A stretch of 64,000 nucleotides of DNA from a bacterium (lineage in GTDB: Bacteria; Oederibacteriota; JAJYGY01; DAIDJD01), in NCBI GenBank assembly GCA_035485275.1, contig DATHOE010000034.1:93677-157676 (forward strand). Reading direction: 5' to 3'. The notes under the pieces were generated by a model. The model saw nothing but the letters and a program-made list of their open reading frames with translations. It did no database searches and was not told the DNA's origin. Positions 5,267 to 49,484 of the stretch are shown here, piece by piece (position 1 is the first letter of the stretch; each line of letters opens with the position of its first letter). The position numbers were made by a program, and so were the translations under genes.

Positions 5267-6070
5267 TCAGGACTGGAAGAAAAACCACAGCAGCGGGCTC
5301 AGGGCCAGGCGGTACCAACCGAAGGGTTTGAACGAAATCCTGGACAGCAGGCGCATGAACTGGCTGACGCTGAGCAGGGCCAGCACAAAGGCCGTGGCGA
5401 AGGCCAGGCCGAAGGCGAGAGGGAAGGCCCGCACCGCCTCGGACTTGTGGAGCTCCAGCAGGGAGGCGGCCAGGAGCACGGGCACTCCCGCCAAAAAGGA
5501 GAATTCCGCGGCCGTTTTGCGGTTCAGGCCCAGGAGCAGGGCGCCGATGATGGTGGCGCCGGAGCGCGAGACGCCCGGCCACAGCGCCAGGCACTGGAAG
5601 AGGCCCACGCCCAGAGCCTGAAGCAGGGTCACGGCGTCGACGCTGGCGCTGGTGACCACTTTCGGACGGAATTCCACGCCCAGGATGGCGGCCCCGCCCA
5701 GGGCCAGGCCGGCCACGGAGGGCAGCGGCCCCAGCATCTGGCTGTAGAAGTATTTTTTGAAGAGCAGGCCGCAGACCAGCACCGGGACGGTGACCAGGGC
5801 CATCAGCTGCCAGGCCCGCGCGCCCTGGAAGCCCGTCCCCTGGTCCAGGCCGGTGCGGCCGGGGCGGAAGAGGGCCTCGAAACGGTTCCAGTACAGGAAC
5901 AGCACGGCCAGGGCCGGCGCGCCCTGCAGGGCCACCCCGAAACTCCGGGTTAGCTCCGGATTGTCCTTGAGCAGGCTCCCCAGGATGATGATATGGGCGT
6001 TGGCGCTCACCGGAAGGAATTCCGTGACGCCTTCAGTGAGTCCGAACAAGAGTGCGTGGAGGATGTTCAT
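5267..6070 (-). CDS. uppP: undecaprenyl-diphosphatase (BacA/UppP)
   Basis: MNILHALLFGLTEGVTEFLPVSANAHIIILGSLL and polytopic membrane profile; ATG at 6070 (residue 37 of ORF 5267..6178; upstream extension non-homologous). Confidence 0.85.
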   Translation of the reverse strand: MNILHALLFGLTEGVTEFLPVSANAHIIILGSLLKDNPELTRSFGVALQGAPALAVLFLYWNRFEALFRPGRTGLDQGTGFQGARAWQLMALVTVPVLVCGLLFKKYFYSQMLGPLPSVAGLALGGAAILGVEFRPKVVTSASVDAVTLLQALGVGLFQCLALWPGVSRSGATIIGALLLGLNRKTAAEFSFLAGVPVLLAASLLELHKSEAVRAFPLAFGLAFATAFVLALLSVSQFMRLLSRISFKPFGWYRLALSPLLWFFFQS

Positions 6071-6226
6071 GCCGCGGCTCCAGGGGAGGTAATAATCGAA
6101 GGAGCTTACACGGAGCCGCCCTGGGAAGGAAAGCCAAACCGGGGTAAATTTCCCCAGGGGGCCGGGCCGCTTAGGCAAGTTTTTTTGTATAAAAGGCTTG
6201 GTTTAAAAGGCCATATTTTTTTAGTT

Positions 6227-6260
6227 TGTGCATTTATTCACAAGGCAATCTGTGTATAAT
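6227..6260 (+). promoter_or_regulatory. candidate act operon promoter: CRP/FNR-family-like palindrome TGTGC-N6-TCACA (6227..6242) plus -10 TATAAT (6255..6260)
   Basis: Read directly: tgtgcatttattcaca matches CRP consensus TGTGA-N6-TCACA with one mismatch; TATAAT 12 nt downstream; sits in the most AT-rich stretch of the window, about 105 nt upstream of actA ATG. Confidence 0.45.
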
Positions 6261-6365
6261 CGTTGGGTTTTCAGGAATCATCGGCCCGGGCCATGAAGGT
6301 CCGGACCAGGAACGGCGTCCCGCTGTCCAAAGCCGGGACGAACTTCGCACTTAGGCAGACCGCAC

Positions 6366-6965
6366 ATGCCTGTGAATAGCCCGCGCCTGACGGCGTTTTT
6401 GATGATCCTCATCTTGGCCGCCCTGTGCCTGTTCCTCACCCCCTTTGTCCAGACCCCGGGGCGTAACAACGGCTACTCACCCCAACAGCCCATAGCTTTT
6501 TCGCACCGCCTGCACGCGGGAATGCTGCAGATCAACTGCCAGTACTGCCACTTCACGGCCGAACGCGGCCCCCACGCCGGTTTCCCGGCCGTGGCCACCT
6601 GCCTGAACTGCCACCGTTTCGTCAAGGGAAGCACCCCCTTCAACCAGGGCGAGATCCAGAAGCTCTACAAGTACGCGGGCCTGGACGCCGACGGGAACCC
6701 CGATCCCAAAGGCAATCCGCAGCCCATCCCCTGGGTCAAGATCCACGTGCTCCCGGCCTTTGTGCGTTTCGACCACAGCCGCCACATCACCCAGGGCGTG
6801 ACCTGCCAGACCTGCCACGGGCCCATCCAGACCATGGACCAGGTGACCCAATATTCGTCGCTGGCGATGGGCTTCTGCGTCAATTGCCACAGGGACGTCG
6901 ACGCCAACGGCCTGCACGGCAAGAAGGTACACGCGTCCCTCGACTGCGCGGTCTGCCACTACTAG
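6366..6965 (+). CDS. actA: Alternative Complex III subunit ActA (membrane-anchored pentaheme cytochrome c)
   Basis: N-terminal TM helix; five CxxCH motifs (CQYCH, CLNCH, CQTCH, CVNCH, CAVCH); first gene of act cluster. Confidence 0.85.
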   Translation: MPVNSPRLTAFLMILILAALCLFLTPFVQTPGRNNGYSPQQPIAFSHRLHAGMLQINCQYCHFTAERGPHAGFPAVATCLNCHRFVKGSTPFNQGEIQKLYKYAGLDADGNPDPKGNPQPIPWVKIHVLPAFVRFDHSRHITQGVTCQTCHGPIQTMDQVTQYSSLAMGFCVNCHRDVDANGLHGKKVHASLDCAVCHY

Positions 6966-6976
6966 AGACTCCAACC

Positions 6977-9900
6977 ATGCCCGATACAAAAAAAACCTAC
7001 TACAAGTCCCAGGCCGAGCGCGAGGCGCTGCTGGATCCGTCCCTGCCGATGCCGGCGCAGATGCAGGAATCCGGCGTCATGGAGGAGAGCCTGGCGGGCG
7101 GGCTGGCCGGGCTCCTGGAGCAGTCCAACGAGCTGCGCATGGACCGGGCCGCCTTCCTCAAGCTGACGGGCTTCAGCTTCGCGGCCGCGGCCCTGGCCGG
7201 CTGCGGCAAGGCCGCTGAAAAGGCCCTGCCCTACCTGGTCCAGCCCGAGGAGGCCATCCCCGGCGTCCCGGTCTTCTACGCGTCGGTCTGCGGCGGCTGC
7301 TCGGCCGGCTGCGGCGTGCTGGCCAAGGACCGCGACGGGCGGCCCATCAAGCTGGAAGGAAACCCCAAGCACCCCCTCAACCACGGCGCCCTCTGCGGCA
7401 TGGGCCAGGCCTCGGTGCTGGGCCTCTACGACACGCACCGGCTGAAGGTCCCGCAGATCGGCGGCCAGGACACGGACTGGGCCTCCCTGGACGCGGCCGT
7501 CATGGGCGCCCTGAAGGACCTGCGCGCCAAGCGCGGCAAACTGCGCATCCTCAGCCGCAGCCTCATCAGCCCAGCCCTGAACGCCCAGATCGCGTCCTTC
7601 GTGGCCGCCCACCCGGGCGCCAAGCACGTGGTCTACGACCCCCTGTCCGCCTCGGCCATCCTCGACGCCCACCAGGAGACCCACGGCCGCCGGGTCCTGC
7701 CCCACTACCGCTTCGATCAGGCCGAGGTGATCGTCGGCTTTGACGCGGACTTCCTGGGCACCTGGATTTCGCCCGTGGAATTCGCCGGCGCCTACCAGAG
7801 CGGCCGCAAACTGCGCGGGCACGAGGGCCGCTTCTCCAAGCATTTCCAGGTCGAATCCGGGCTCACCGTGACGGGCAGCAAGGCCGACGAGCGGGCCACG
7901 GTGCGGCCCAGCGAGATGACCCTGGCTTTGGCCCACCTGGCCGTGAAGCTGGGCGCGCCCTCGGACTGGACCGGCAGGGGGGCCAACCCCATCGGCGCGG
8001 TCAATGCCGTGGACTCCGGCCGCCTGGACGCCATGGCCAAGGCCCTCAAGGCCGCGGGTTCCAAGGGCCTGGTGGTCTGCGGATCCCAGGATCTCAAGGC
8101 CCAGCTGATCACGAACTGGATCAACCACCGCCTGGGCGCCTACGGCACCACGCTGGACGTCAAGCGCCCCTCGCTGCAGCGCCAGGGCGACGACCTGGCC
8201 GTGGCCGCCCTGATCGAGGAGATGGGCAAGGGCCAGGTGCAGGGCCTCATCGTGCTCGACGGCGATCCCGTGGCGGAACTGCCCCAGGGGCAGGCCTTCG
8301 CCGACGGGATGAAGAAGGTCCCCTTCACGGTCAGCCTGGCATTGGCGGACGACGACACCGCCTCGCTGTGCGGCTTCCGCGCGCCGGACAACCATTGGCT
8401 GGAATCCTGGTCCGACGCCGAACCCATCGCGGGCATGGTGGGCCTGGCCCAGCCGGCCATACGGCCCTTGTACAAGACCCGGCAGGCGCTGGAAAGCCTG
8501 GCCGCCTGGCAGGGGAAGGACGGCCTGGCCCTCGACCTGCTGAAGGCCTTCTGGAAGTCCCACGTGTTCCCGGCGGCGGGCAAGGGCCTCTTCTTCGACG
8601 CCTTCTGGGACAGCACGCTTCAGGCCGGCTTTGTGGACAAGGCCGGCGACGCGCAGGGCGCCTCCGGGGATTTCCGCGAGCCGAAGATCGGCGGCCTGAA
8701 GGCCTCCTCCGACGGCATGGAAGTCGCCTTCTACCCCAAGATCGCCCTCCAGGACGGCCGCCACGCGGTCAATCCCTGGATCCAGGAGCTGCCCGACCCG
8801 ATCAACAAGATCTCCTGGGACCAGACCGTCGCGGTGAACGCGGACACGGCCAAGAACCTGGGCCTGGAGGAGGGCGACACGGTCCGCCTCAGCGCGCAGG
8901 GCACGGGCACGGTCCTGGAGCTGCCGGTGCACGTGCAGCCCGGGCAGGATCCGCGCACCTTCAGCGTGCCCATGGGATACGGCCGCGCCGGCACCGAGCG
9001 CTTCCACGACATCGGCCCGCGCTGGCTCCTGAACGTGCCCGTGGTGGACAAGGGCCAGCGCCTGGGCGTGAACGTGGCCGCCCTGGCCGACCCCTCCGAC
9101 GGCCGGCCCAAGTGGCACCGCTCCGGCGCCTCCGTCTCCAAGACCGGCGACAACGTCATGCTGGCCTGCACCCAGATCCACCAGACCCTCGACCTCCCGG
9201 CCTACATGGTCCCCCAGGCCGGCCCGCGCGTGCCGGCCGTCCAGGAGATGACCCTGGAGGAGTTCCGCAAGGGCGCCGAGGCCGAGCGCATGGATCCCGC
9301 GGGCAGCCTTTACAAGGACAGGGAATTCACCGGCCGCCGCTGGGCCATGGCGGTGGACCTGACCGCCTGCAACGGCTGCTCCGCCTGCGTGATCGCCTGC
9401 CAGATCGAGAACAACGTCCCGGTGGTGGGCCGCGAAGAGGTGCGCCGCGCCCACGAAATGCACTGGATACGCATCGACCGCTACTACCACGACGGCCCGG
9501 ACGGGCTGGAGACCATCAGCCAGCCCATGATGTGCCAGCAGTGCGGGCACGCCCCCTGCGAGCCGGTCTGCCCGGTGGCCGCGACCACGACCAACGCCGA
9601 AGGGATTAACCAGCAGGTGTACAACCGGTGCGTTGGCACGCGCTATTGCGCCAACAACTGCCCCTACAAGGTGCGGCGCTTCAACTGGTTCGACTATCCC
9701 GCCGTGTCCGGCTCCGAGACCTTGACCCTGAACCCGGACGTCACGGTGCGTTCGCGCGGCGTGATGGAGAAGTGCAACTTCTGCGTCCAGCGCGTGCAGG
9801 AGCAGAAGGCGGAGGCCAAGCGCGCCGGCCGCGGGGACGCCATGGACGACGGCGAGATCAAGACCGCCTGCCAGCAGACCTGCCCGGCCCAGGCCATCAC

Positions 9901-10033
9901 CTTCGGCGACATCAACGATCCCAAGAGCGCGGTCTCCCTGCTGGCCGGCGACGTGCGGGCCTTCAAGGTGCTGGAGGACCTCAACACCCGGCCCGCGGTG
10001 AGCTACCTGGCCCAAGTCCGAAACAAGAGCTGA
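6977..10033 (+). CDS. actB: Alternative Complex III subunit ActB (molybdopterin-oxidoreductase-like domain fused to 4-cluster FeS domain)
   Basis: About 1019 aa; C-terminal Cys clusters CNGCSACVIAC, CQQCGHAPCEPVCP, CVGTRYCANNCP, CNFCVQRV; Tat-like segment DRAAFLKL followed by LAGC. Start taken at first ATG (6977); true start uncertain. Confidence 0.85.
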   Translation: MPDTKKTYYKSQAEREALLDPSLPMPAQMQESGVMEESLAGGLAGLLEQSNELRMDRAAFLKLTGFSFAAAALAGCGKAAEKALPYLVQPEEAIPGVPVFYASVCGGCSAGCGVLAKDRDGRPIKLEGNPKHPLNHGALCGMGQASVLGLYDTHRLKVPQIGGQDTDWASLDAAVMGALKDLRAKRGKLRILSRSLISPALNAQIASFVAAHPGAKHVVYDPLSASAILDAHQETHGRRVLPHYRFDQAEVIVGFDADFLGTWISPVEFAGAYQSGRKLRGHEGRFSKHFQVESGLTVTGSKADERATVRPSEMTLALAHLAVKLGAPSDWTGRGANPIGAVNAVDSGRLDAMAKALKAAGSKGLVVCGSQDLKAQLITNWINHRLGAYGTTLDVKRPSLQRQGDDLAVAALIEEMGKGQVQGLIVLDGDPVAELPQGQAFADGMKKVPFTVSLALADDDTASLCGFRAPDNHWLESWSDAEPIAGMVGLAQPAIRPLYKTRQALESLAAWQGKDGLALDLLKAFWKSHVFPAAGKGLFFDAFWDSTLQAGFVDKAGDAQGASGDFREPKIGGLKASSDGMEVAFYPKIALQDGRHAVNPWIQELPDPINKISWDQTVAVNADTAKNLGLEEGDTVRLSAQGTGTVLELPVHVQPGQDPRTFSVPMGYGRAGTERFHDIGPRWLLNVPVVDKGQRLGVNVAALADPSDGRPKWHRSGASVSKTGDNVMLACTQIHQTLDLPAYMVPQAGPRVPAVQEMTLEEFRKGAEAERMDPAGSLYKDREFTGRRWAMAVDLTACNGCSACVIACQIENNVPVVGREEVRRAHEMHWIRIDRYYHDGPDGLETISQPMMCQQCGHAPCEPVCPVAATTTNAEGINQQVYNRCVGTRYCANNCPYKVRRFNWFDYPAVSGSETLTLNPDVTVRSRGVMEKCNFCVQRVQEQKAEAKRAGRGDAMDDGEIKTACQQTCPAQAITFGDINDPKSAVSLLAGDVRAFKVLEDLNTRPAVSYLAQVRNKS

Positions 10034-10036
10034 GGA

Positions 10037-11485
10037 ATGAAACCCATGCAATCTAGCGCAGCGGCCGTGGACGTGGATCCGGCCGATCAATCCTGGGTGG
10101 AGGGGAACAAGACCCTCGGCCAAGTCACCAAGGACATCGGCGACCACCTCGACGGCAAGCCCGGCGAGTGGTGGTGGATCGGGTTCGGCATCTCGCTCCT
10201 GGCCCTGGGCCTGGGCGGCTTCTGCATCGTCTACCTCATGTTCACGGGCATCGGCTGTTTCGGCCTGAACAAGACCATCGGCTGGGCCTTTGAGATCACC
10301 AACTTCGTGTTCTGGGTGGGTATCGGCCACGCCGGCACGCTGATCAGCGCCATCCTCTACCTGCTGCGGCAGCGCTGGCGGACCGCGGTGAACCGTTCCG
10401 CCGAGGCCATGACGCTCATCGCGGTCATGTGCGCGGGCCTGTTCCCGCTCATGCACATGGGCCGGCCCTGGTTCTTCTTCTACCTGGCCCCCTACCCCAA
10501 CACCCGCGGCTCCCTGTGGATGAACTTCCGCTCGCCGCTGGTCTGGGACATGCTCGCCATCTCCACCTACTTCACGGTCTCGCTGGTCTTCTGGTACCTG
10601 GGCCTGATCCCCGACCTGGCCACGCTGCGCGACCGGGCCAAGGGCGTGAAGAAGTTCATCTACGGCATCTTCAGCTTCGGCTGGGACGGCTCCAGCCGGA
10701 CCTGGAAGCACTACGAGCTGGTCTACCTGATCCTGGCCGGCCTGGCCACGCCCCTGGTGCTGTCCGTGCACTCGGTGGTGAGCTCGGACTTCGCCACCTC
10801 GCTGATCCCGGGCTGGCACACCACCATCTTCCCGCCCTACTTCGTGGCCGGCGCCATCTTCTCCGGCTTCGCCATGGTCCTGACCCTCATGCTGGTCGCC
10901 CGCAAGACCATGCACTTCGAGGAGTACATCACCCTGCGCCACATCGAGGCCATGACCAAGGTGATGCTCCTGACCTCCATGATCGTGGGCCTGGCCTACA
11001 TGACAGAGTTCTTCATCGCCTGGTACTCCGGCGACCGCTACGAGCAGCAGCACTTCCTGGTCCGCTTCCTGGGCCCATACGGCTGGTGGGCCTTCATCAT
11101 GTACGGCTGCAACATGGTCATCCCCCAGGTGCTCTGGTTCAAGGCGGTCCGGCGCAACCTGCTCCTGGTCTTCATCATCACGCTCAGCACGAACGTGGGC
11201 ATGTGGTTCGAGCGCTGGGTGATCATCGTCAGCTCCCTGCAGACGGACTTCCTGCCCTCCAGCTGGGAGCACTACCACCCCACGCCCTTCGACTACGGCG
11301 TCACGCTGGGCAGCTTCGGGCTCTTCTTCACCGTGTTCCTGCTCTTCGCGCGCTTCCTGCCCATGATCGCCATCGCGGAGATCAAGCACGAGGTCGCCCA
11401 CGGCGGCGCCCCCCACGGCGAGCATGAGGCCCACGGGGCCCACGCCGCAGCCGCGCTGCCGCGCGCCGAAGCGGAGGCCGTATGA
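10037..11485 (+). CDS. actC: Alternative Complex III subunit ActC (NrfD/PsrC-like quinol-interacting membrane subunit)
   Basis: Polytopic membrane protein with NrfD-like helices (FEITNFVFWVGIGHAGTLISAILYL...); ATG 3 nt after actB stop. Confidence 0.8.
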   Translation: MKPMQSSAAAVDVDPADQSWVEGNKTLGQVTKDIGDHLDGKPGEWWWIGFGISLLALGLGGFCIVYLMFTGIGCFGLNKTIGWAFEITNFVFWVGIGHAGTLISAILYLLRQRWRTAVNRSAEAMTLIAVMCAGLFPLMHMGRPWFFFYLAPYPNTRGSLWMNFRSPLVWDMLAISTYFTVSLVFWYLGLIPDLATLRDRAKGVKKFIYGIFSFGWDGSSRTWKHYELVYLILAGLATPLVLSVHSVVSSDFATSLIPGWHTTIFPPYFVAGAIFSGFAMVLTLMLVARKTMHFEEYITLRHIEAMTKVMLLTSMIVGLAYMTEFFIAWYSGDRYEQQHFLVRFLGPYGWWAFIMYGCNMVIPQVLWFKAVRRNLLLVFIITLSTNVGMWFERWVIIVSSLQTDFLPSSWEHYHPTPFDYGVTLGSFGLFFTVFLLFARFLPMIAIAEIKHEVAHGGAPHGEHEAHGAHAAAALPRAEAEAV

Positions 11486-12012
11486 CGCGCCGTTTCGTGG
11501 TCGGCTACTTCGAGGCGGACTCCGCGGCGATCAAGGCCGTCAAGGCCCTGCGCGCGGAAGGCTGGCAGATCTACGACGTCTTCACGCCCTACCCCGTGCC
11601 GGGCATGGACGAGGCCATGGACCTGCCCCATTCCTTCCTGGGCTGGGTGGCCTTCATCAACGGCATGGGCGGGGCCCTGGGCATGCTGGCCCTGGCGCTC
11701 TTCGTGTCCGTGATCGCCTGGCCGCTGAACGTCGGCGGCCGCCCCGACGCGTCCATACCCGCCTTCTTCCCGCCGGTCTTCGAGGCGGGGGTCCTGAGCG
11801 CGGGGGTGACCGTGGTCCTGGCCCTGTTCTGGGTCTGCGACCTCTGGCCGGGGAAGACCGCCAAGCTGGACCTGCCCCGCAGCACGGACGACCGTTTCGC
11901 GGTGGTGCTGGACGCCGACCAGTCCCCCCACGCGGGCGACAGGATCATCGGCGCGCTGAAAGCCCAAGGCGCGGTCGAAGTGGGTGAACAATCCGTCCGG
12001 GAGGCGCTGTGA
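11482..12012 (+). CDS. actD: Alternative Complex III subunit ActD (DUF3341-like)
   Basis: MTRRFVVGYFEADSAAIKAVKALRAEGWQIYDVFTPYPV N-terminus and two C-terminal TM helices; start overlaps actC stop. Confidence 0.75.
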   Translation: MTRRFVVGYFEADSAAIKAVKALRAEGWQIYDVFTPYPVPGMDEAMDLPHSFLGWVAFINGMGGALGMLALALFVSVIAWPLNVGGRPDASIPAFFPPVFEAGVLSAGVTVVLALFWVCDLWPGKTAKLDLPRSTDDRFAVVLDADQSPHAGDRIIGALKAQGAVEVGEQSVREAL

Positions 12013-13319
12013 ACAAGTGGGGCTTCCTGAACATACTCTTGGCGGGCGCTCTGGCTTTCGTGCTGCTGCTGCTGGCGGCCATGCACACCAACCCCAACAA
12101 GCGCAACCATTACTGGCTCCAGGGCATGGACGAGAGCCCGGCGCCGGCGGACTTCTCGGACAACCCCAATTTCGCCAACGGCCAGACCCTGCAGATGCCC
12201 CCGGACGGGACCCTGGCGCAGGGGGAGCAGCGCTATCCCTACGCCGGCGGCATGGACGAAGCCATCCGCGCGGGCAAGGCCCTCAAGAACCCCCTCGACC
12301 CCAACGACCCGCAGGTCCTGCTGAGGGGCAAGATCCTGTTCGAGCGCAACTGCATGCCCTGCCACGGCGTGGCCGGGCGCGGGGACGGCCTGGTCACGGC
12401 CGCCCGCCGCGCGGGCGGCTTCCCGCCGCCCCCCAGCCTGCTGGCGGCCCACGCCAAGGGGCTTCCGGACGGCTACATCTACAACTACATCTCCCGCGGC
12501 GGCATCCTGATGCCCTCCTACGGTGCCCAGATCAACCCCCAGGAGCGCTGGAAGGTGGTCTCCTGGGTCCGGCACATGCAGAAGAGCTTCCCCGAGGCCC
12601 TGCCCGCCACGGGCACGGCGCAGGCCAACGACGAGGCGGGACTGGTGCCCTCCACGACCCCCGGCTTTGACTACGACGGCCAGCCTCCGGTCGACGAGAT
12701 CGAGGCCAACGAGGCCCTGCAGCAGGCCACCATCGAGAACCGGGGCGAAGCCTCGGAGACCGACATGCCCCCGGCCATGGTGGCAGCGGCGGCGGCCGCC
12801 GCCGCGGCGTCAGCCGGGGCCGGAGGGGGCACCCCCTGGCAGCAGGCCCTCGTGGTCATCAACAAGAACGACTGCTTCACCTGCCACAACCCGGACCACA
12901 AGGTCATCGGGCCGGCCTTCAAGGACGTGGCCAAGCGCTACTACAGCCGGCAGCCCGGCATCATCCCGATCCTGGTGGCGAAGGTCAAAGCGGGAGGCGC
13001 GGGCAACTGGGGCCAGGTGCCCATGGCGGCGCACCCCAACACCTCGGACGCGGACCTGACGACCATCGTGAAGGGCATCCTTTATCTGGCCGACCCCAAG
13101 GGCAAGGGGACCAGCTCCATGGCCCCGAGCATGAAGCGGGTCATGGAACTGGTCCATTCCGGGGCGCCCATCCACTGCCCCGCCCTGGGCGCCGAAGCCA
13201 TCAACGGCCCGGCCTTCCTGACCGAGCGCGAGCCCCTGCAGGCCGAAGTGCGGCGCGTCAGCGGCCCGGACCTGGCCGCCCTGGGCCCAGGATCCGTTGA
13301 CCAGGAGACGAAACCATGA
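12009..13319 (+). CDS. actE: Alternative Complex III subunit ActE, extended diheme form (two c-type cytochrome domains joined by a poly-Ala linker)
   Basis: N-terminal TM helix; CMPCH with downstream ILMPSYG (Met ligand); poly-Ala linker AMVAAAAAAAAASAGAGGG; second domain CFTCHNPDHKVIGPAFKDVAKRYY...WGQVPMAAHPN; GTG start overlapping actD stop. Confidence 0.75.
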   Translation: MNKWGFLNILLAGALAFVLLLLAAMHTNPNKRNHYWLQGMDESPAPADFSDNPNFANGQTLQMPPDGTLAQGEQRYPYAGGMDEAIRAGKALKNPLDPNDPQVLLRGKILFERNCMPCHGVAGRGDGLVTAARRAGGFPPPPSLLAAHAKGLPDGYIYNYISRGGILMPSYGAQINPQERWKVVSWVRHMQKSFPEALPATGTAQANDEAGLVPSTTPGFDYDGQPPVDEIEANEALQQATIENRGEASETDMPPAMVAAAAAAAAASAGAGGGTPWQQALVVINKNDCFTCHNPDHKVIGPAFKDVAKRYYSRQPGIIPILVAKVKAGGAGNWGQVPMAAHPNTSDADLTTIVKGILYLADPKGKGTSSMAPSMKRVMELVHSGAPIHCPALGAEAINGPAFLTEREPLQAEVRRVSGPDLAALGPGSVDQETKP

Positions 13320-14482
13320 GCGAGGCCGCCTTGCCTAAAGATCTGCTTTCCCCGGGCCGGAAGCGCGGCCTCCTGGCCCTGGTGGTCCTGGGGGTCGTGA
13401 CCCTGCTGATTGGGGCCGCCATGGACTGCGCCGGGGTCTATTCCGGGGTCCTGATCGGCTTCCTGTTCATCATCGACCTGGGCCTCGGCGGGGTCCTCTT
13501 CGTCGTGATCAACAACGCCGCGGCCGCGCGCTGGGACGCCGTTTTTCGGCGCGTCCCGGAGGCCATGGCCACCACCCTGCTGGGCAGCGCCGGCCTGGTC
13601 CTGGTCTTCCTGTGGGCCGTCAGCCACGTCTATCCCTGGGCCCGGCCGGGCTTCATGGACAACCCGATCCCGGAGCTGGCCGGCAAGAAGGACTGGCTGA
13701 GCGTGGGCTCCTTCTCCTCGCGCGCCCTGGTCTACGTGGCCATCTGGACGGGCATGCTGTGCGTCATCCTGCGCAAGTACTGGGCCCAGGACCGCGACGG
13801 CGTCGACCGCACCACGATCATCCGCAGGCTGTCCATGCTCTTCCTGGTCCTCTTCGCCTACAGCTTCTCGCTGGCCTGCTTCGACTGGCTCATGTCCCTG
13901 GAGCCGACCTGGTACAGCGCCATCTTCGCCGTCTATTGCTTCGGCGGCGTCATGCAATGCGGGCTGGCGGTCACGCTCCTCCTGGTCCTGTACCTGGACG
14001 CGAAGGGCGTCTTCCAGGACAAGCTGCGGGAACAGCACCTGCACGACCTGGGCAAGTGGATGTTCGCCTGGAGCGTCTTCTGGGCCTACATCTGGTTCTT
14101 CCAGTACATGCTCACCTGGTACGCGGACCTGCCCGGCGAGAACCAGTATTACCTTTTGCGCTCCGGGCACTGGGCGTGGATGATGGTGGCGGTGGTGGTC
14201 GGGCGCTTCGCGGTGCCCTTCTTCGGGCTGGCCTCCCAGCGGGTGAAGAAGGACCGGCGGGTGCTGGCGACGGTGGCCGCGGTCGTGATCTTCGCGCAGT
14301 GGCTGGACCTGGTCCTGATGGTCCTGCCCTCCCAGGGCACGATGCGCAACCCTTTCGCCCTGCTGCTGCCCCTCGCGACGGGGGCCGGCTTCGTGCTGCT
14401 GTTCTTCAGGGCCTTCCGCGGCCGGCCCGCCCTGCGCCCGGCGGACGCGGCCATGGCATACAGCAGCCGCTATCTGACCTAG
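13316..14482 (+). CDS. actF: Alternative Complex III subunit ActF (NrfD-like membrane subunit)
   Basis: Polytopic membrane protein after actE with overlapping start; hydrophobic helices throughout. Confidence 0.75.
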   Translation: MSEAALPKDLLSPGRKRGLLALVVLGVVTLLIGAAMDCAGVYSGVLIGFLFIIDLGLGGVLFVVINNAAAARWDAVFRRVPEAMATTLLGSAGLVLVFLWAVSHVYPWARPGFMDNPIPELAGKKDWLSVGSFSSRALVYVAIWTGMLCVILRKYWAQDRDGVDRTTIIRRLSMLFLVLFAYSFSLACFDWLMSLEPTWYSAIFAVYCFGGVMQCGLAVTLLLVLYLDAKGVFQDKLREQHLHDLGKWMFAWSVFWAYIWFFQYMLTWYADLPGENQYYLLRSGHWAWMMVAVVVGRFAVPFFGLASQRVKKDRRVLATVAAVVIFAQWLDLVLMVLPSQGTMRNPFALLLPLATGAGFVLLFFRAFRGRPALRPADAAMAYSSRYLT

Positions 14483-14516: not shown

Positions 14517-14744
14517 ATGGGAGACATAGGTTTTCCGGAATTGATGGTCATCTTGGTGATCGCCCTGGTGCTCTTCGGGGGCGGGAAGCTGCCCGAGGTG
14601 GGCCGCTCCCTGGGATCGGCGATCCGCGAGTTCAAGAACGCCATGCGGGACGTGGATCCGACCAAGGACGTGAAGGCGGACGCCAAGCTGGTGGACGCCA
14701 AGGTCGTGGACAAGGACAGTGGTTCAAAAGACCAGCACGCCTGA
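14517..14744 (+). CDS. tatA: twin-arginine translocase subunit TatA/E
   Basis: 75 aa; N-terminal TM helix MVILVIALVLFGGGKLPE followed by amphipathic helix SLGSAIREFKNAMRD. Confidence 0.85.
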   Translation: MGDIGFPELMVILVIALVLFGGGKLPEVGRSLGSAIREFKNAMRDVDPTKDVKADAKLVDAKVVDKDSGSKDQHA

Positions 14745-15456
14745 GGATCCCACCCTCTTTGAGCACCTGTTCGAGATACGCACCCGGCTGATCCGCTGCC
14801 TGGCGGTCTTCCTCGGCGCGAGCCTTGTTTGTTACCTGCGCGCCGGGGACATGTTCGACTTCCTTGCCGCGCCTGCGGAGGGCCATCTGGTCTTCACCCA
14901 CCCGGTGGGCGCCATGATGGCCTACATGAAGCTCGGCTTCATGGCGGGCCTGATCGTCTCCTCCCCCTATATTTTCTACCAGGTCTTCGCCTTCCTGCAG
15001 CCGGCCATGAACCCGGCCTGGCGCCGCACCGTGACCCTCAGCCTCGTGGTCGGCTACCTCCTGTTCGGCCTGGGGGTGGCCTTCTCCCTCAAGACCCTGC
15101 CCCTGGCCATGCATTTCCTGCTGTCCTACGCCCGTCCCGGCCTGCAGGCCATGATCAACGTGGACCAGTACTTCAGCTTCGTCTTCCTGATCACCTTCGG
15201 CAGCGGCTTCGCCTTCGAGATGCCCCTATTGATGTATTTCCTGGCCGCGGGAGGCTTCATCAGCAGCGCCACCCTGGTCAAGCAGTGGCGCATGGCAATC
15301 ATGGCCTGCCTGATCCTGGGGGCCGTGATCTGCCCCACGCCGGACCTGGTGACCTGGGCCCTGGTGTGCCTGCCCCTCTTCGGGCTCTACCTGGTCAGCA
15401 TCGGGGTGGTGCGCTGGGCCGAGGGGGCGCGGAGGAAGCGCGTGGAGACGGCCTAG
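14719..15456 (+). CDS. tatC: twin-arginine translocase subunit TatC
   Basis: LFEHLFEIRTRLIRCLAVFL..., six predicted TM helices, about 245 aa; GTG start overlapping tatA 3' end. Confidence 0.85.
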   Translation: MVQKTSTPEDPTLFEHLFEIRTRLIRCLAVFLGASLVCYLRAGDMFDFLAAPAEGHLVFTHPVGAMMAYMKLGFMAGLIVSSPYIFYQVFAFLQPAMNPAWRRTVTLSLVVGYLLFGLGVAFSLKTLPLAMHFLLSYARPGLQAMINVDQYFSFVFLITFGSGFAFEMPLLMYFLAAGGFISSATLVKQWRMAIMACLILGAVICPTPDLVTWALVCLPLFGLYLVSIGVVRWAEGARRKRVETA

Positions 15457-18590: not shown

Positions 18591-18659
18591 TCCTACCGTA
18601 TAATTGCCCCCGATTTTCCTTGGTACCTAAGGTTTTTGAACCGTTCAGGAGATCGAATC

Positions 18660-27982: not shown

Positions 27983-29415
27983 GCTCGGCCACTTTGATGG
28001 GGGACACGCCCTTATTGCAGGTTCCCGCCGATACCCGGTATTTTAGGCGGATAGGATTCGGCCTCATCGCGGCCTGGGTCCTGGTTCTTTTGGCCGTCCT
28101 ATTCGTGAGCAATTGGTGCACGGAGAAAAACCTCCTGGCCGCGTTGGTTCTGAGTCTCGGTTTGAGCCCTATGGCGGCGTGGTTTTTGGAGGGCCAGGGC
28201 GGCGATTTCCCGATTTTCCAGTTGCATACACTATACTACGGCATGAATTACGGGCTTGCGTCGCTGTACGCCAATCCTCAATTGACCGCGGTGTCGGAAT
28301 CGGACCGCGTTGTCGCGCTGCAGGCGACCGCCATGGGCTTGGGGGTGATGCTGTGGGCGTATTACTTCATCGGGGTACGGTTGTTCCGGCGGATACGGCC
28401 GCTGAAGGTGACAACTCCCGTGCCCTATGAAAATTTTCTCAGATGGGCCTGGGTCATAGCCTTCATCAGCGCCATAAAAAAAATCACCGGAGTGGATTTT
28501 GGGCCCCTGGAGATGCTGGTTTACCAGCCTCTCCTGTACCTGGGGTGGATGGCCAACACTTTTATCCTTGTCGACTTGCTTGTCTACAAAAGGGGGAAGA
28601 AACTGCGGTCGATGTTTTTTTTCGGTTTGTTGATGTTCTTTCAGTTTTTTTCCGCCATCGGATCCGGCCTATTCTCCAACATCCTGATCCTCGTTTTTTT
28701 CATGATCTTCGTTTATTTGAACGTGAAAAAGCGGGTACTCATGAAGGTCATCGTCTTGAGCGTGGTGTTTTTCGTCATTTTGGAGCCGCTGAAAAACGAA
28801 TTTCGCCTGCTGACTTGGGGGCCCAAGAATACGTCCGTCAGCGCGGTTCAAAGGGCGTCGATTTTCGCGGAATTGCTCGTGTCGAAGTACAGCGCCTATT
28901 CTTCCGTCGCATCCACCTCCGTGAACCAGGTCGTCAGCAGGATAGACGACGCCTATACGTTGGCGCGAGTGATGCAGCAGACACCCGACTATGTCCCTTA
29001 TTCGAACGGCAGCACTTACTTATCCTTGCTCACCATTTGGATTCCACGCGCTATTTGGCCCGATAAACCACAAGGGAACATTGGAAATACGTGGGCCCAC
29101 TGGTACGGCCTATTGGACCAGGACGATTTCACGACCTCCTACAACCTGCCTTGGATCGTGGAGTTTTATATCAACTTCGGCTGGGCGGGGATCATCGTCG
29201 GCATGTTTTTGTCCGGAATCCTGTTTGCCTGGCTTGCCGCATTTTTTTGTTTCCCCGGGGCGAGCGCGTTGGAGTATTCGGCGGCGGTTCCCCTGCTTCT
29301 TAACCTTTGGTACGCCGAATCGAATTTCGCCCTGGTTGCCGGCGGGCTCATCATAGGGCTGGTCGTGCTCCGGGTGTACATGAAAGCCATGCCCTACCTC
29401 GCTTTCAAGTTTTGA
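27979..29415 (+). CDS. polytopic membrane protein, putative Wzy-type polymerase / O-antigen ligase-like
   Basis: 478 aa, about 10-12 TM helices with large loop; lower GC than neighbours; position between GT genes. Confidence 0.55.
   Translation: MSSATLMGDTPLLQVPADTRYFRRIGFGLIAAWVLVLLAVLFVSNWCTEKNLLAALVLSLGLSPMAAWFLEGQGGDFPIFQLHTLYYGMNYGLASLYANPQLTAVSESDRVVALQATAMGLGVMLWAYYFIGVRLFRRIRPLKVTTPVPYENFLRWAWVIAFISAIKKITGVDFGPLEMLVYQPLLYLGWMANTFILVDLLVYKRGKKLRSMFFFGLLMFFQFFSAIGSGLFSNILILVFFMIFVYLNVKKRVLMKVIVLSVVFFVILEPLKNEFRLLTWGPKNTSVSAVQRASIFAELLVSKYSAYSSVASTSVNQVVSRIDDAYTLARVMQQTPDYVPYSNGSTYLSLLTIWIPRAIWPDKPQGNIGNTWAHWYGLLDQDDFTTSYNLPWIVEFYINFGWAGIIVGMFLSGILFAWLAAFFCFPGASALEYSAAVPLLLNLWYAESNFALVAGGLIIGLVVLRVYMKAMPYLAFKF
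28476..28483 (+). repeat. A8 homopolymeric tract inside Wzy-like gene
   Basis: gccatAAAAAAAAtcacc read directly (encodes AIKKIT). Confidence 0.85.
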
Positions 29416-47108: not shown

Positions 47109-48491
47109 TTAAGCCGGCCACCTTTTTGATCCACTCGAAGTCAAAATTTTCCAAATGAACGCGGTGAGTAAAAACAAAAAAAGAGGATAGTAAATACCTG
47201 AGCCATAGAAATATGGCACCGGAATACCAATCATCTCAATGCAAATAACACATATCGTAAAATAAAATTTGAGTCTCTTGTCGGAAAGGCTCAACATATT
47301 CTTCAATACCCACGGCAGCAACGCGATGACCCAGAACAGTCTGATCATCCAGGTGAACGGTGCGCAAAAAAGCGTGATGAGTATTCCGAAGTAATAGAAA
47401 GTCAATGTGGGATCCAGGAAATCCGGAGATGTTCCACGTGCGAAAAAAAAAGTCAGAGCCCACAATAGCAGCGGGGTGAAAATCATAATTAATAGTCTGG
47501 AGATATGTAAACGCGATGCCATTTCTCGGGTGCCTGATCCGTTTGAGTTCTGGTCCATGAGCCCGCTGTCGTCATATATAACTCCATCGATGGTGTTTAT
47601 GGAGTCGGGCCAAGCCCGGGAATATATTTGGATTTCCCTGGAGCTTAACGACTGATTTTCACTCCCCAATTCTTCCGATTGGAAAATACGGCCCAAACGA
47701 TGCATGAAATAATCTTGGTTTACCGAAATGCCGTCCAAAGCGAGGCTGCTTCCAAAAAGCACGGCTACACCTAACAGGAATCCAACTAAAGTTGGACGCC
47801 AGCGCGTTAAGAATATTCCGGGCATGAACAAAAGGGTGTCCAGTTTTAGGAAGGTGGCCACCGCAAGGCAGGCCCCTAATGCGCAATGAGCCCAATTTTC
47901 TTTGAATCGACAGGCCAGAAAAAAACCCATGGTAATGACAAAAAATGTAATTCCGTCGATATTTGCTGCTTCGATCTGGGAGACTGTGGGGTAAAACCAA
48001 AAAGCGGTACCCAATACCGCGAACATCGGAAACAAAAATATGTCCAGCCACACGACATAGGTTGCCGCCGCAATCGACGCGACAATGCATGAAAAAATTA
48101 AAAGCGTCCAAATCAACTTGGCGCGGGCATACCTAAAATAAGTGAAAGGAACAAACAGTCTTGCCGTCAATGGGGGCAATAAAAAACCGCTGTTGGCGAA
48201 CGAGCTATAATCCCAGGTGCGGATGTCTTTCGCCATATTGTTGTCATAGGGAGAATATCCATCCCTCACGGAGAATCCGGTGCTATAGAAATCAAAAAAA
48301 TCACCTTGTGGGCCATGGGCGACTAGATGGCAGGTCCAGCCGGAAATCCAGATAAGTCCGCTCAAAAAATAGAGCATCATTAAGATTTTAAGTTTTCGTG
48401 GCGCTCTTTCCACTGATACTCCCTGTCGCGTATGTTTTTCCTTCCTTAGACCTTGGACCCAGTGCCGGATGCTCGGGTTGGCGTCACGCAT
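47109..48491 (-). CDS. polytopic membrane protein (lower-GC), putative GT-C/DUF2029-like or polymerase
   Basis: 460 aa, many TM helices, Phe/Trp/Tyr-rich; visibly AT-richer than flanking genes; start uncertain. Confidence 0.5.
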   Translation of the reverse strand: MRDANPSIRHWVQGLRKEKHTRQGVSVERAPRKLKILMMLYFLSGLIWISGWTCHLVAHGPQGDFFDFYSTGFSVRDGYSPYDNNMAKDIRTWDYSSFANSGFLLPPLTARLFVPFTYFRYARAKLIWTLLIFSCIVASIAAATYVVWLDIFLFPMFAVLGTAFWFYPTVSQIEAANIDGITFFVITMGFFLACRFKENWAHCALGACLAVATFLKLDTLLFMPGIFLTRWRPTLVGFLLGVAVLFGSSLALDGISVNQDYFMHRLGRIFQSEELGSENQSLSSREIQIYSRAWPDSINTIDGVIYDDSGLMDQNSNGSGTREMASRLHISRLLIMIFTPLLLWALTFFFARGTSPDFLDPTLTFYYFGILITLFCAPFTWMIRLFWVIALLPWVLKNMLSLSDKRLKFYFTICVICIEMIGIPVPYFYGSGIYYPLFLFLLTAFIWKILTSSGSKRWPA

Positions 48492-48725
48492 ACTGTGTTC
48501 TAATTTTTTGATTTTGCGGATGCCTGAAAAACGAGGTGCCGGATTATAATTCCCGCTGCCATAAGAAGCAACGGGCCGGGGCGAAAGGCTGCGGAATGAT
48601 CCCCCGGGCTGGCGCCAATTGGATCGCGTTCCGAATGGATTTGACCCAGCATTTGCTATACACTTTGCGCTTTCAGGAGCCGGTCCGTTAGGGGGACTCG
48701 GCTTACCGTCTAGCCAGGTTGTCGC

Positions 48726-49484
48726 ATGAAGCTTTCAGTGGTCACTGTGGTCCGGAACGACCCGGCGGTGGCGTCCACGGTATCCAGCGTTTTGGCCCAG
48801 AAAGGCCTGGACGTGGAATGCGTCGTCATCGACGGCGCGAGTACGGACGGCACTTTGGCGGCCCTGAAACCCATGCGCCGGCGGATACGCCTTTTCAGCG
48901 AGCCTGACAGCGGCATCTACGACGCCATGAACAAGGGGCTGCATAGGGCGCGAGGTCGGGTGGTGGGCTTCCTGAACGCGGGGGACGTTTTTTTGGGGGA
49001 CCACAATTTGGCGGAGGTTTCCCGGGCTTTCAGCTCGGACAAGGGCCTGGGCGCCTGTTTTTCCGGGCTGGAAATCTCCGATCCCCAAGGGAAGCGGAAG
49101 CGCTGGTGGCCCGCCTCGGAGTACCAGCCCGGGGCCTTTGCCGCAGGGTGGATGCCCAGCCACCCGACTTTTTACGCCCTGCGCCGGCCCCTGCTCGATT
49201 TGGGCGGCTTTGACCTGCGTTACCGTCTGGCAGCGGATTACGACCTGATGCTCAGGGCCTTGGAACAGGCTCAGCTTCGTTCCGTGGCCCTGCCGCTTTG
49301 CCTGGTGCGCATGCGCAGCGGCGGCGCCAGCCAGGCTTCTCTGGGCGCCCTTTGGCGCCACAATAGGGAAGCCTGGTCCGCGGCCACCGCCGCGGGAACC
49401 GTGAGGTGCTCCTTTGGGCGCTTTTTGGCCCGCAAATGGAGCCATAAATGGCGCCAGGTCCTGGATGCGCGGTTTGCGCCCTGA
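48726..49484 (+). CDS. glycosyltransferase family 2
   Basis: LSVVTVVRNDP ... VVIDGASTDGT ... FLNAGD GT-A motifs. Confidence 0.8.
   Translation: MKLSVVTVVRNDPAVASTVSSVLAQKGLDVECVVIDGASTDGTLAALKPMRRRIRLFSEPDSGIYDAMNKGLHRARGRVVGFLNAGDVFLGDHNLAEVSRAFSSDKGLGACFSGLEISDPQGKRKRWWPASEYQPGAFAAGWMPSHPTFYALRRPLLDLGGFDLRYRLAADYDLMLRALEQAQLRSVALPLCLVRMRSGGASQASLGALWRHNREAWSAATAAGTVRCSFGRFLARKWSHKWRQVLDARFAP

Follow-up and report, generated by a model that had tools for sequence, protein, structure and literature searches.

Alternative complex III (ACIII) is widespread, but in the literature that could be searched we saw no report of how its transcription is regulated. A palindrome in the promoter region of an ACIII operon raises the question of which regulator would bind there, and with what effect on the respiratory complex. 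The window, by which we mean the whole 64-kb stretch of DNA analysed, has as its closest relative in the species-level collection L001, a MAG of candidate division FCPU426 with 88% ActA identity. FCPU426 is a rare uncultured phylum of soil and hot springs whose functional literature is essentially nil. The sequence-only reading had placed TGTGCATTTATTCACA at 6227..6242, between the divergent genes uppP and actA, and had put a TATAAT hexamer 12 nt downstream of it. Both were confirmed in the sequence, TATAAT being at 6255..6260, and the position between uppP on the minus strand and actA on the plus strand was confirmed by gene calls and Pfam.

The inverted repeat and its conservation

The 16-mer lies inside an 18-bp inverted repeat. 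The repeat and the genes around it are as follows:

5267..6070, minus strand: uppP, undecaprenyl-diphosphatase, 267 aa (Pfam BacA, 1.5e-62), outside the conserved unit
6226..6243, no strand: predicted operator, an 18-bp inverted repeat with arms TTGTGCA and TTCACAA around a TTTA spacer (match to the Rex consensus, conservation in four genomes, half-sites identical to those of an S. avermitilis operator)
6366..14482, plus strand: ACIII operon with actA, actB, actC, actD, a cytochrome c gene (ActE-like) and actF (Pfam, public gene calls)
6366..6965, plus strand: actA (gene calls)
14517..15456, plus strand: tatA and tatC, directly after actF

Within the operon, actC belongs to the NrfD family. 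The cytochrome c gene at the ActE position (12009..13319) specifies a protein of 436 aa, which far exceeds the length of canonical monohaem ActE, and a single Cytochrom_C domain was detected in its product, at residues 106-190; the length of the protein at this position varies among relatives (314 aa in L166, 385 aa in L163). In L173, tatA is divergent from actA, and Tat export genes appear linked to ACIII in this group, a plausible linkage, as subunits of the ActB type are usually substrates of Tat.

The intergenic region had been described as the most AT-rich stretch of the window. This is correct at a scale of 60-86 nt, at which 6176..6261 has the lowest GC content (29%, against 63% for the whole window), but at 100 nt and above the segment at 47.1-47.3 kb is equal or lower. 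The uppP/actA intergenic region as a whole has 53% GC because the actA leader is GC-rich. A polysaccharide-synthesis cluster (15.5-63 kb) takes up most of the remainder of the window. Low-GC islands within this cluster (36-44% against 63%), at 47109..48491 and about 28555..28754, take in genes for a GT87-family glycosyltransferase and a Wzy-like polymerase, and their composition suggests horizontally acquired cassette genes.

We then compared the repeat with its counterparts in relatives. The operator alignment comprised the window, L081 (92% ActA identity), L001 (88%) and L162 (78%); the upstream region of L161 (79%) ends just 5' of TATAAT and falls outside it. In the four genomes the operator varies only at positions 7 and 11, which leaves 16/18 columns invariant, as compared with 37% of columns at fourfold-degenerate sites of actA in the same genomes (binomial P = 9e-6 for 16/18). 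The half-site bases, seven per arm, are invariant except for position 7 in one genome, and position 11 lies in the spacer, which reads TTTA or TTTC. T4 and G5 are intact in both arms. GTATAATC is likewise invariant in the same four genomes, and most of the 11 nt that separate the operator from the -10 hexamer vary. Two bases to the left of the 18-mer, GT, are also conserved, with no such extension on the right. By this comparison, the putative operator is under strong purifying selection.

Which genes precede actA varies from one relative to another, yet the operator is kept; since the neighbours differ, the conserved elements belong to actA. The gene uppP (5267..6070) stands between a bioD-like gene and actA in the window only. 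In a second clade of relatives (clade 2; the window and its close relatives form clade 1), bioD is directly upstream of actA (466..1149 in L163; also in L082), and L001, L081 and L162 have yet other neighbours there, the promoter module having stayed with actA through repeated rearrangements. A seemingly conserved upstream block in clade 2 was rejected as a regulatory element, as it is the 3' end of the bioD-like coding sequence.

How unusual the repeat is depends on the pattern with which it is described. As a CRP site, TGTGA-N6-TCACA, it had been called a near-perfect match, and nine of the ten core bases do agree, but an equally good hit arises readily by chance: with up to one mismatch, the pattern has a single match in the 64-kb window, and 52 of 100 shuffled windows also contain at least one. 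The chance of the pattern falling in the AT-rich patch is 0.2% in composition-matched shuffles, and 0.7% for the whole intergenic region. As a Rex operator, described by the 18-mer TTGTGAANNNNTTCACAA, the site matches at 13 of the 14 specified bases and has in addition a spacer made wholly of A/T. With up to one mismatch this 18-mer also has one match in the window, as against none in 100 shuffled windows, and its chance in the AT-rich patch is 0.003% (3e-5; composition-matched shuffles of the patch). Thus, a CRP match within 64 kb is unremarkable, and the Rex-operator match is far rarer.

The operator is not repeated nearby. We found no second copy with fewer than three mismatches in the 64-kb window, and none in 20.9 kb of the close relative L174. 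This weighs little, because there is no other energy-metabolism operon in that DNA. Among about 160 ACIII loci of other phyla, no Rex-like site matching at 12 or more of the 14 specified positions was found.

Promoter architecture and the actA leader

The effect of a bound regulator would depend on where the repeat lies in the actA promoter. Besides the operator, the upstream region contains these elements:

6184..6196, plus strand: conserved block TTTTGTATAAAAG, about 75 nt upstream of the predicted transcription start site (TSS); common to the window, L081 and L001 despite differing upstream genes, absent in L162
6216..6222, plus strand: T-tract at about -51 to -45, possibly UP-element-like in function
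6233..6238, plus strand: putative weak -35-like hexamer TTTATT, 16 nt upstream of the -10 and within the operator spacer
6255..6260, plus strand: TATAAT, -10 hexamer of actA (invariant in seven of seven related upstream regions; enriched in intergenic DNA)
6353..6359, plus strand: Shine-Dalgarno-like AGGCAGA, 6 nt before the actA ATG, in the conserved AAGGCAGA

TATAAT occurs ten times in the window, counting both orientations, and intergenic DNA, 5.4% of the total, contains six of these occurrences. Four plus-strand operons have it upstream, those of trx, actA and the genes at 18636 and 48726, with no recognisable -35 at any of them. TATAAT is a credible working -10 for this organism, whose promoters appear to depend chiefly on that element. 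At actA, TTT(A/C)TT is kept 16-17 nt upstream of TATAAT in all seven sequences; TTTATT matches TTGACA at only three of six positions, and a scan with consensus promoters found no canonical promoter here. The arms of the repeat are poor candidates for a -35, as TTCACA and TTGTGC would give spacers to TATAAT of 12 and 23 nt, respectively. ACIII is common in Bacteroidota, whose promoters are of the TAnnTTTG type. Such a promoter was considered and rejected: the conserved AGTTTG is one base off and the A is missing, and TATAAT is a clear working -10. Elsewhere in the window, the minus-strand gene 47109..48491 and the plus-strand gene 48726..49484 diverge from a region in which ATTATA and TATAAT overlap (48543..48550); these hexamers may be two -10 boxes placed back to back, with bases in common.

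With this -10, the TSS is predicted near 6267, about 7 nt after TATAAT. For a predicted TSS at 6266-6268, the operator centre (6234.5) is at -31.5 to -33.5 and the operator extends from about -41 to -24. A dimer occupying this stretch would be in competition with RNA polymerase, and the position relative to the predicted TSS suggests repression. Class II activation by a CRP/FNR protein does not fit, as the centre is near -32.5 and not -41.5, and we found no -10-like hexamer 30 nt downstream of the operator centre.

Other features surround this core. T-runs are found at the same place as the T-tract in L081 and L162. Directly upstream of the operator, a weak hairpin (GGCTT...AAGGCC) is followed by a T-run, together covering 6195..6222, and L081 has a different hairpin with a T-run at the same place; hairpin and T-run could shield the promoter against transcription arriving from upstream, or the T-tract could act as an UP element. 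The block TTTTGTATAAAAG shares TGTATAA with the -10 block, and may be a second regulator site or an UP-like element. As a second promoter it is unconvincing, having no -35 and, in L081, a G at the first position of the -10.

Downstream of the predicted start, AAGGCAGA is conserved in the window, L081, L001, L161, L162 and L082. About 60 nt of GC-rich sequence (6283..6345) are inserted in the actA leader, and L081 and L001 lack this insertion. It includes a hairpin, GTCCCG...CGGGAC (6317..6339), also present in L161 and L162 and free of compensatory changes. In a second predicted leader helix, ACTTCGC pairs with the Shine-Dalgarno-like AGGCAGA.

Candidate regulators

We consider it moderately likely that the 18-bp repeat at 6226..6243 is an operator for the redox-sensing repressor Rex. 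The CRP pattern TGTGA-N6-TCACA is contained within the Rex operator TTGTGAA-W4-TTCACAA, and where Rex and E. coli CRP sites differ (T1, A7, T12, A18 and an A/T spacer) the site follows Rex. The same ambiguity has a precedent: in the work of Pagels et al., the motif was first noticed as TGTGAn6TCACA, Rex binding was shown, and the motif was refined to TTGTGAAW4TTCACAA (PMC2883068). Mutational work on S. aureus Rex indicates that positions 4 and 5 matter most and that the spacer is best A/T-rich; one-mismatch sites bind about twofold more weakly, and the sites fall within core promoters or next to them (PMC2883068). The structure of T. maritima Rex bound to DNA shows minor-groove contacts of the wing with the outer TT, and contacts of Lys49 with G5 and A6 (PMC8836258). 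Contacts of the wing with the outer TT would account for the invariance of the outer TT/AA here, and the conservation of T12/T13 could be due in part to the overlapping -35-like hexamer. The DNase I-footprinted operator of S. avermitilis rex-hemAC1DB is TTGTGCACGCGTTCACAA, and the footprints of Streptomyces Rex at rex (-39..-17), nuoA1 (-42..-16) and atpI (-50..-22) all cover the -35 and lie at respiratory operons (PMC5355995). ACIII as a target of Rex is not reported in the searchable literature.

If the repeat is a Rex operator, a Rex dimer with NAD+ would occupy the -35 position of this chiefly -10-dependent promoter, exclude RNA polymerase and so keep the ACIII operon off. As the NADH/NAD+ ratio rises, NADH-bound Rex would leave the DNA and the respiratory complex would be made. 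We infer from the DNA the identity of the regulator, the TSS, and the direction and signal of regulation.

The window itself names no regulator. Rex proteins combine a winged helix (PF06971) with a Rossmann domain (PF02629), and CRP/FNR regulators combine PF00027 with PF13545. In the 64 kb, phmmer with approximate sequences of E. coli CRP and FNR as queries, together with Pfam, found no CRP/FNR gene, and phmmer with likewise approximate sequences of Bacillus and Thermus Rex, together with Pfam, found no Rex gene. Pfam detected no regulator gene among about 50 ORFs of the window. No regulator gene was found in the 20.9 kb of L174, and no rex is annotated in the 10 kb past the window's right end in a close relative.

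More distant relatives have a different box at the same operon:

L082 1924..1937, L163 1198..1211, and L164/L165 (clade 2): TTGAT-N4-CTCAA; 68-71% ActA identity
L170 551..564 (L170/L171): TTGAT-AGAG-ATCAC; 62% ActA identity, with a Crp-like regulator gene directly upstream
L172 569..582: ATGAT-N4-ATCAT; 62% ActA identity
L173 882..895: ATGAT-N4-ATCAT; 56% ActA identity
L167 505..518: GTGAT-CCGG-ATCAT; 61% ActA identity
L168: ATGAC-GGCC-ATCAT; 56% ActA identity, one mismatch to the core

An exact TGAT-N4-ATCA core occurs in four of five lineages (L170/L171, L172, L173, L167 and L168), compared with 4 of 154 upstream regions of other phyla. The regulator gene of L170/L171 (3..365 in L170) encodes the C-terminal part of a Crp-like HTH protein (PF13545, 4.7e-17). 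In its recognition helix, TRETAVRLL, the protein has the R-E-x-x-x-R arrangement of CRP, from which GTGA half-sites are predicted; a homologue search with the L170 CRP-family fragment gave no matches. Judging from these boxes and this gene, a CRP/FNR-family regulator very probably controls ACIII in those distant lineages, and ACIII is likely part of a CRP/FNR-family regulon in distant FCPU426-like lineages. The box is absent from the upstream regions of the window and L081 even with one mismatch allowed. The window site matches TGAT-N4-ATCA at five of eight positions and has A/T where the box has T/A next to TGA. In clade 2 the box is 5 nt before the homologous TATAAT, with its centre near -24.5, and the clade-1 operator is 8 bp farther from the shared -10. 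A different motif at a different position on a homologous promoter is more readily explained by a change of regulator than by one site having drifted. We tentatively propose such a replacement as possible: ancestral CRP/FNR control through TGAT-N4-ATCA, by a protein whose gene one lineage would still have beside the operon, loss of the box in the window's clade, and the rise of a Rex operator 8 bp upstream.

The boxes in sister lineages are also the best argument for the alternative that a CRP/FNR-family protein with CRP-type specificity, an orthologue or paralogue of the sister lineages' ACIII regulator, binds the repeat. Such a regulator would most likely repress from over the -35 and, less likely, activate from an unusual position. 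It would explain the 9/10 match to TGTGA-N6-TCACA, it would agree with the CRP/FNR-geometry boxes at the same operon and with the R-E-x-x-x-R helix of the adjoining gene in L170/L171, and a single family with shifted specificity is the more economical account; to our knowledge, CRP-family regulators are near-universal in bacteria, which adds to its plausibility. We regard this alternative as a serious rival, yet as less likely than Rex. Over the whole window the pattern is no commoner than expected by chance, and positions 1, 7, 12 and 18, together with the T/A after TGA, follow Rex and not the TGAT...ATCA box of the lineage. With its centre near -32.5, the site fits neither class I nor class II activation, no CRP/FNR gene was found in the window, and the 8 bp between the clade-1 site and the clade-2 box mean that the two are not the same site by descent.

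The repeat might instead be bound by a regulator of some other family, or reflect promoter architecture, a -35 or UP-like element with no dedicated regulator. The coincidence of the spacer with the conserved TTT(A/C)TT at the -35 position, the extension of conservation by GT past the left end only, and the failure to find a regulator gene in the window are all in keeping with this, but symmetric conservation of both 7-nt arms is unexpected for a -35 or an UP element, and the arms read as -35 hexamers leave the unsuitable 12- and 23-nt spacers. Moreover, the other TATAAT promoters of the window have nothing similar upstream, and a 13/14 operator match has a chance of only about 3e-5 in the patch, so that we hold this explanation to be improbable. 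Highly improbable, in our judgement, is an element acting at the RNA level, that is, a leader structure, a riboswitch or a terminator of upstream transcription. The weak hairpin and T-run at 6195..6222 and the leader hairpin at 6317..6339, common to part of the clade, could be taken to hint at one; against this, the palindrome is upstream of the predicted TSS and its arms are short and A/T-rich, a search of 6050..6450 with Rfam (E up to 1) returned nothing, and the leader hairpin has no compensatory changes and is missing from L081 and L001.

Thus, of the original proposal that a CRP/FNR-family protein controls this respiratory operon, the palindrome holds up as a conserved predicted operator for a dimeric regulator in the ACIII promoter, and redox or respiratory control is a sensible theme for it. 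The family, given the fit to the Rex motif, was probably wrong, and the direction of control is probably repression.

Significance and relation to known operators

Read as a Rex site, the operator predicts that ACIII expression tracks the NADH/NAD+ ratio, and its motif could define a redox regulon in these genomes. If the proposed replacement is true, control of an aerobic respiratory complex has switched from a CRP/FNR-type signal to the NADH/NAD+ ratio, and this would be the first regulator assigned to any ACIII operon. The contrast with the sister lineages offers a compact example of the turnover of binding site and regulator on a homologous promoter. The element is nonetheless a standard bacterial operator of known type, and its significance is local, not conceptual; mildly new are ACIII as the target and the apparent regulator turnover between sister lineages.

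The E. coli CRP consensus is AAATGTGATCTAGATCACATTT. The repeat shares the core geometry of the CRP site TGTGA-N6-TCACA and nine of its ten core bases, whereas its flanking and inner positions differ from that consensus. In E. coli, class II activation by CRP or FNR is centred at -41.5 and class I activation at -61.5 or further upstream in steps of one helical turn, whereas the site here is near -32.5 relative to the predicted TSS. Closer at hand, the FNR-type TTGAT-N4-ATCAA boxes of the sister ACIII promoters share with the repeat the operon, the promoter region and the dyad geometry, and also overlap the core promoter; their half-site is TGAT, in contrast to GTGCA/GTGAA here.

The S. aureus Rex box TTGTGAAW4TTCACAA agrees with the repeat at 17 of 18 positions, and the A/T spacer is shared. 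In S. aureus, Rex represses from sites inside or adjoining the core promoter, and the site here likewise overlaps the predicted core promoter. S. aureus Rex acts mainly on fermentation and anaerobic genes, whereas the target here is an aerobic quinol:cytochrome c oxidoreductase. In this respect the operators of Streptomyces Rex (rex-hemAC1DB, nuoA1-N1, atpI and cydA1, in S. avermitilis and S. coelicolor) are nearer: there, as is predicted here, the operator covers the -35, and the target is respiratory. The hosts are unlike, an actinomycete in the one case and an uncultured FCPU426 bacterium in the other, and the spacer is GC-rich in Streptomyces but A/T-rich here (TTTA), as in Staphylococcus. 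The closest counterpart is the operator of S. avermitilis rex-hemAC1DB, which is likewise 18 bp long with a 4-nt spacer and has identical half-sites, TTGTGCA and TTCACAA, including C6.
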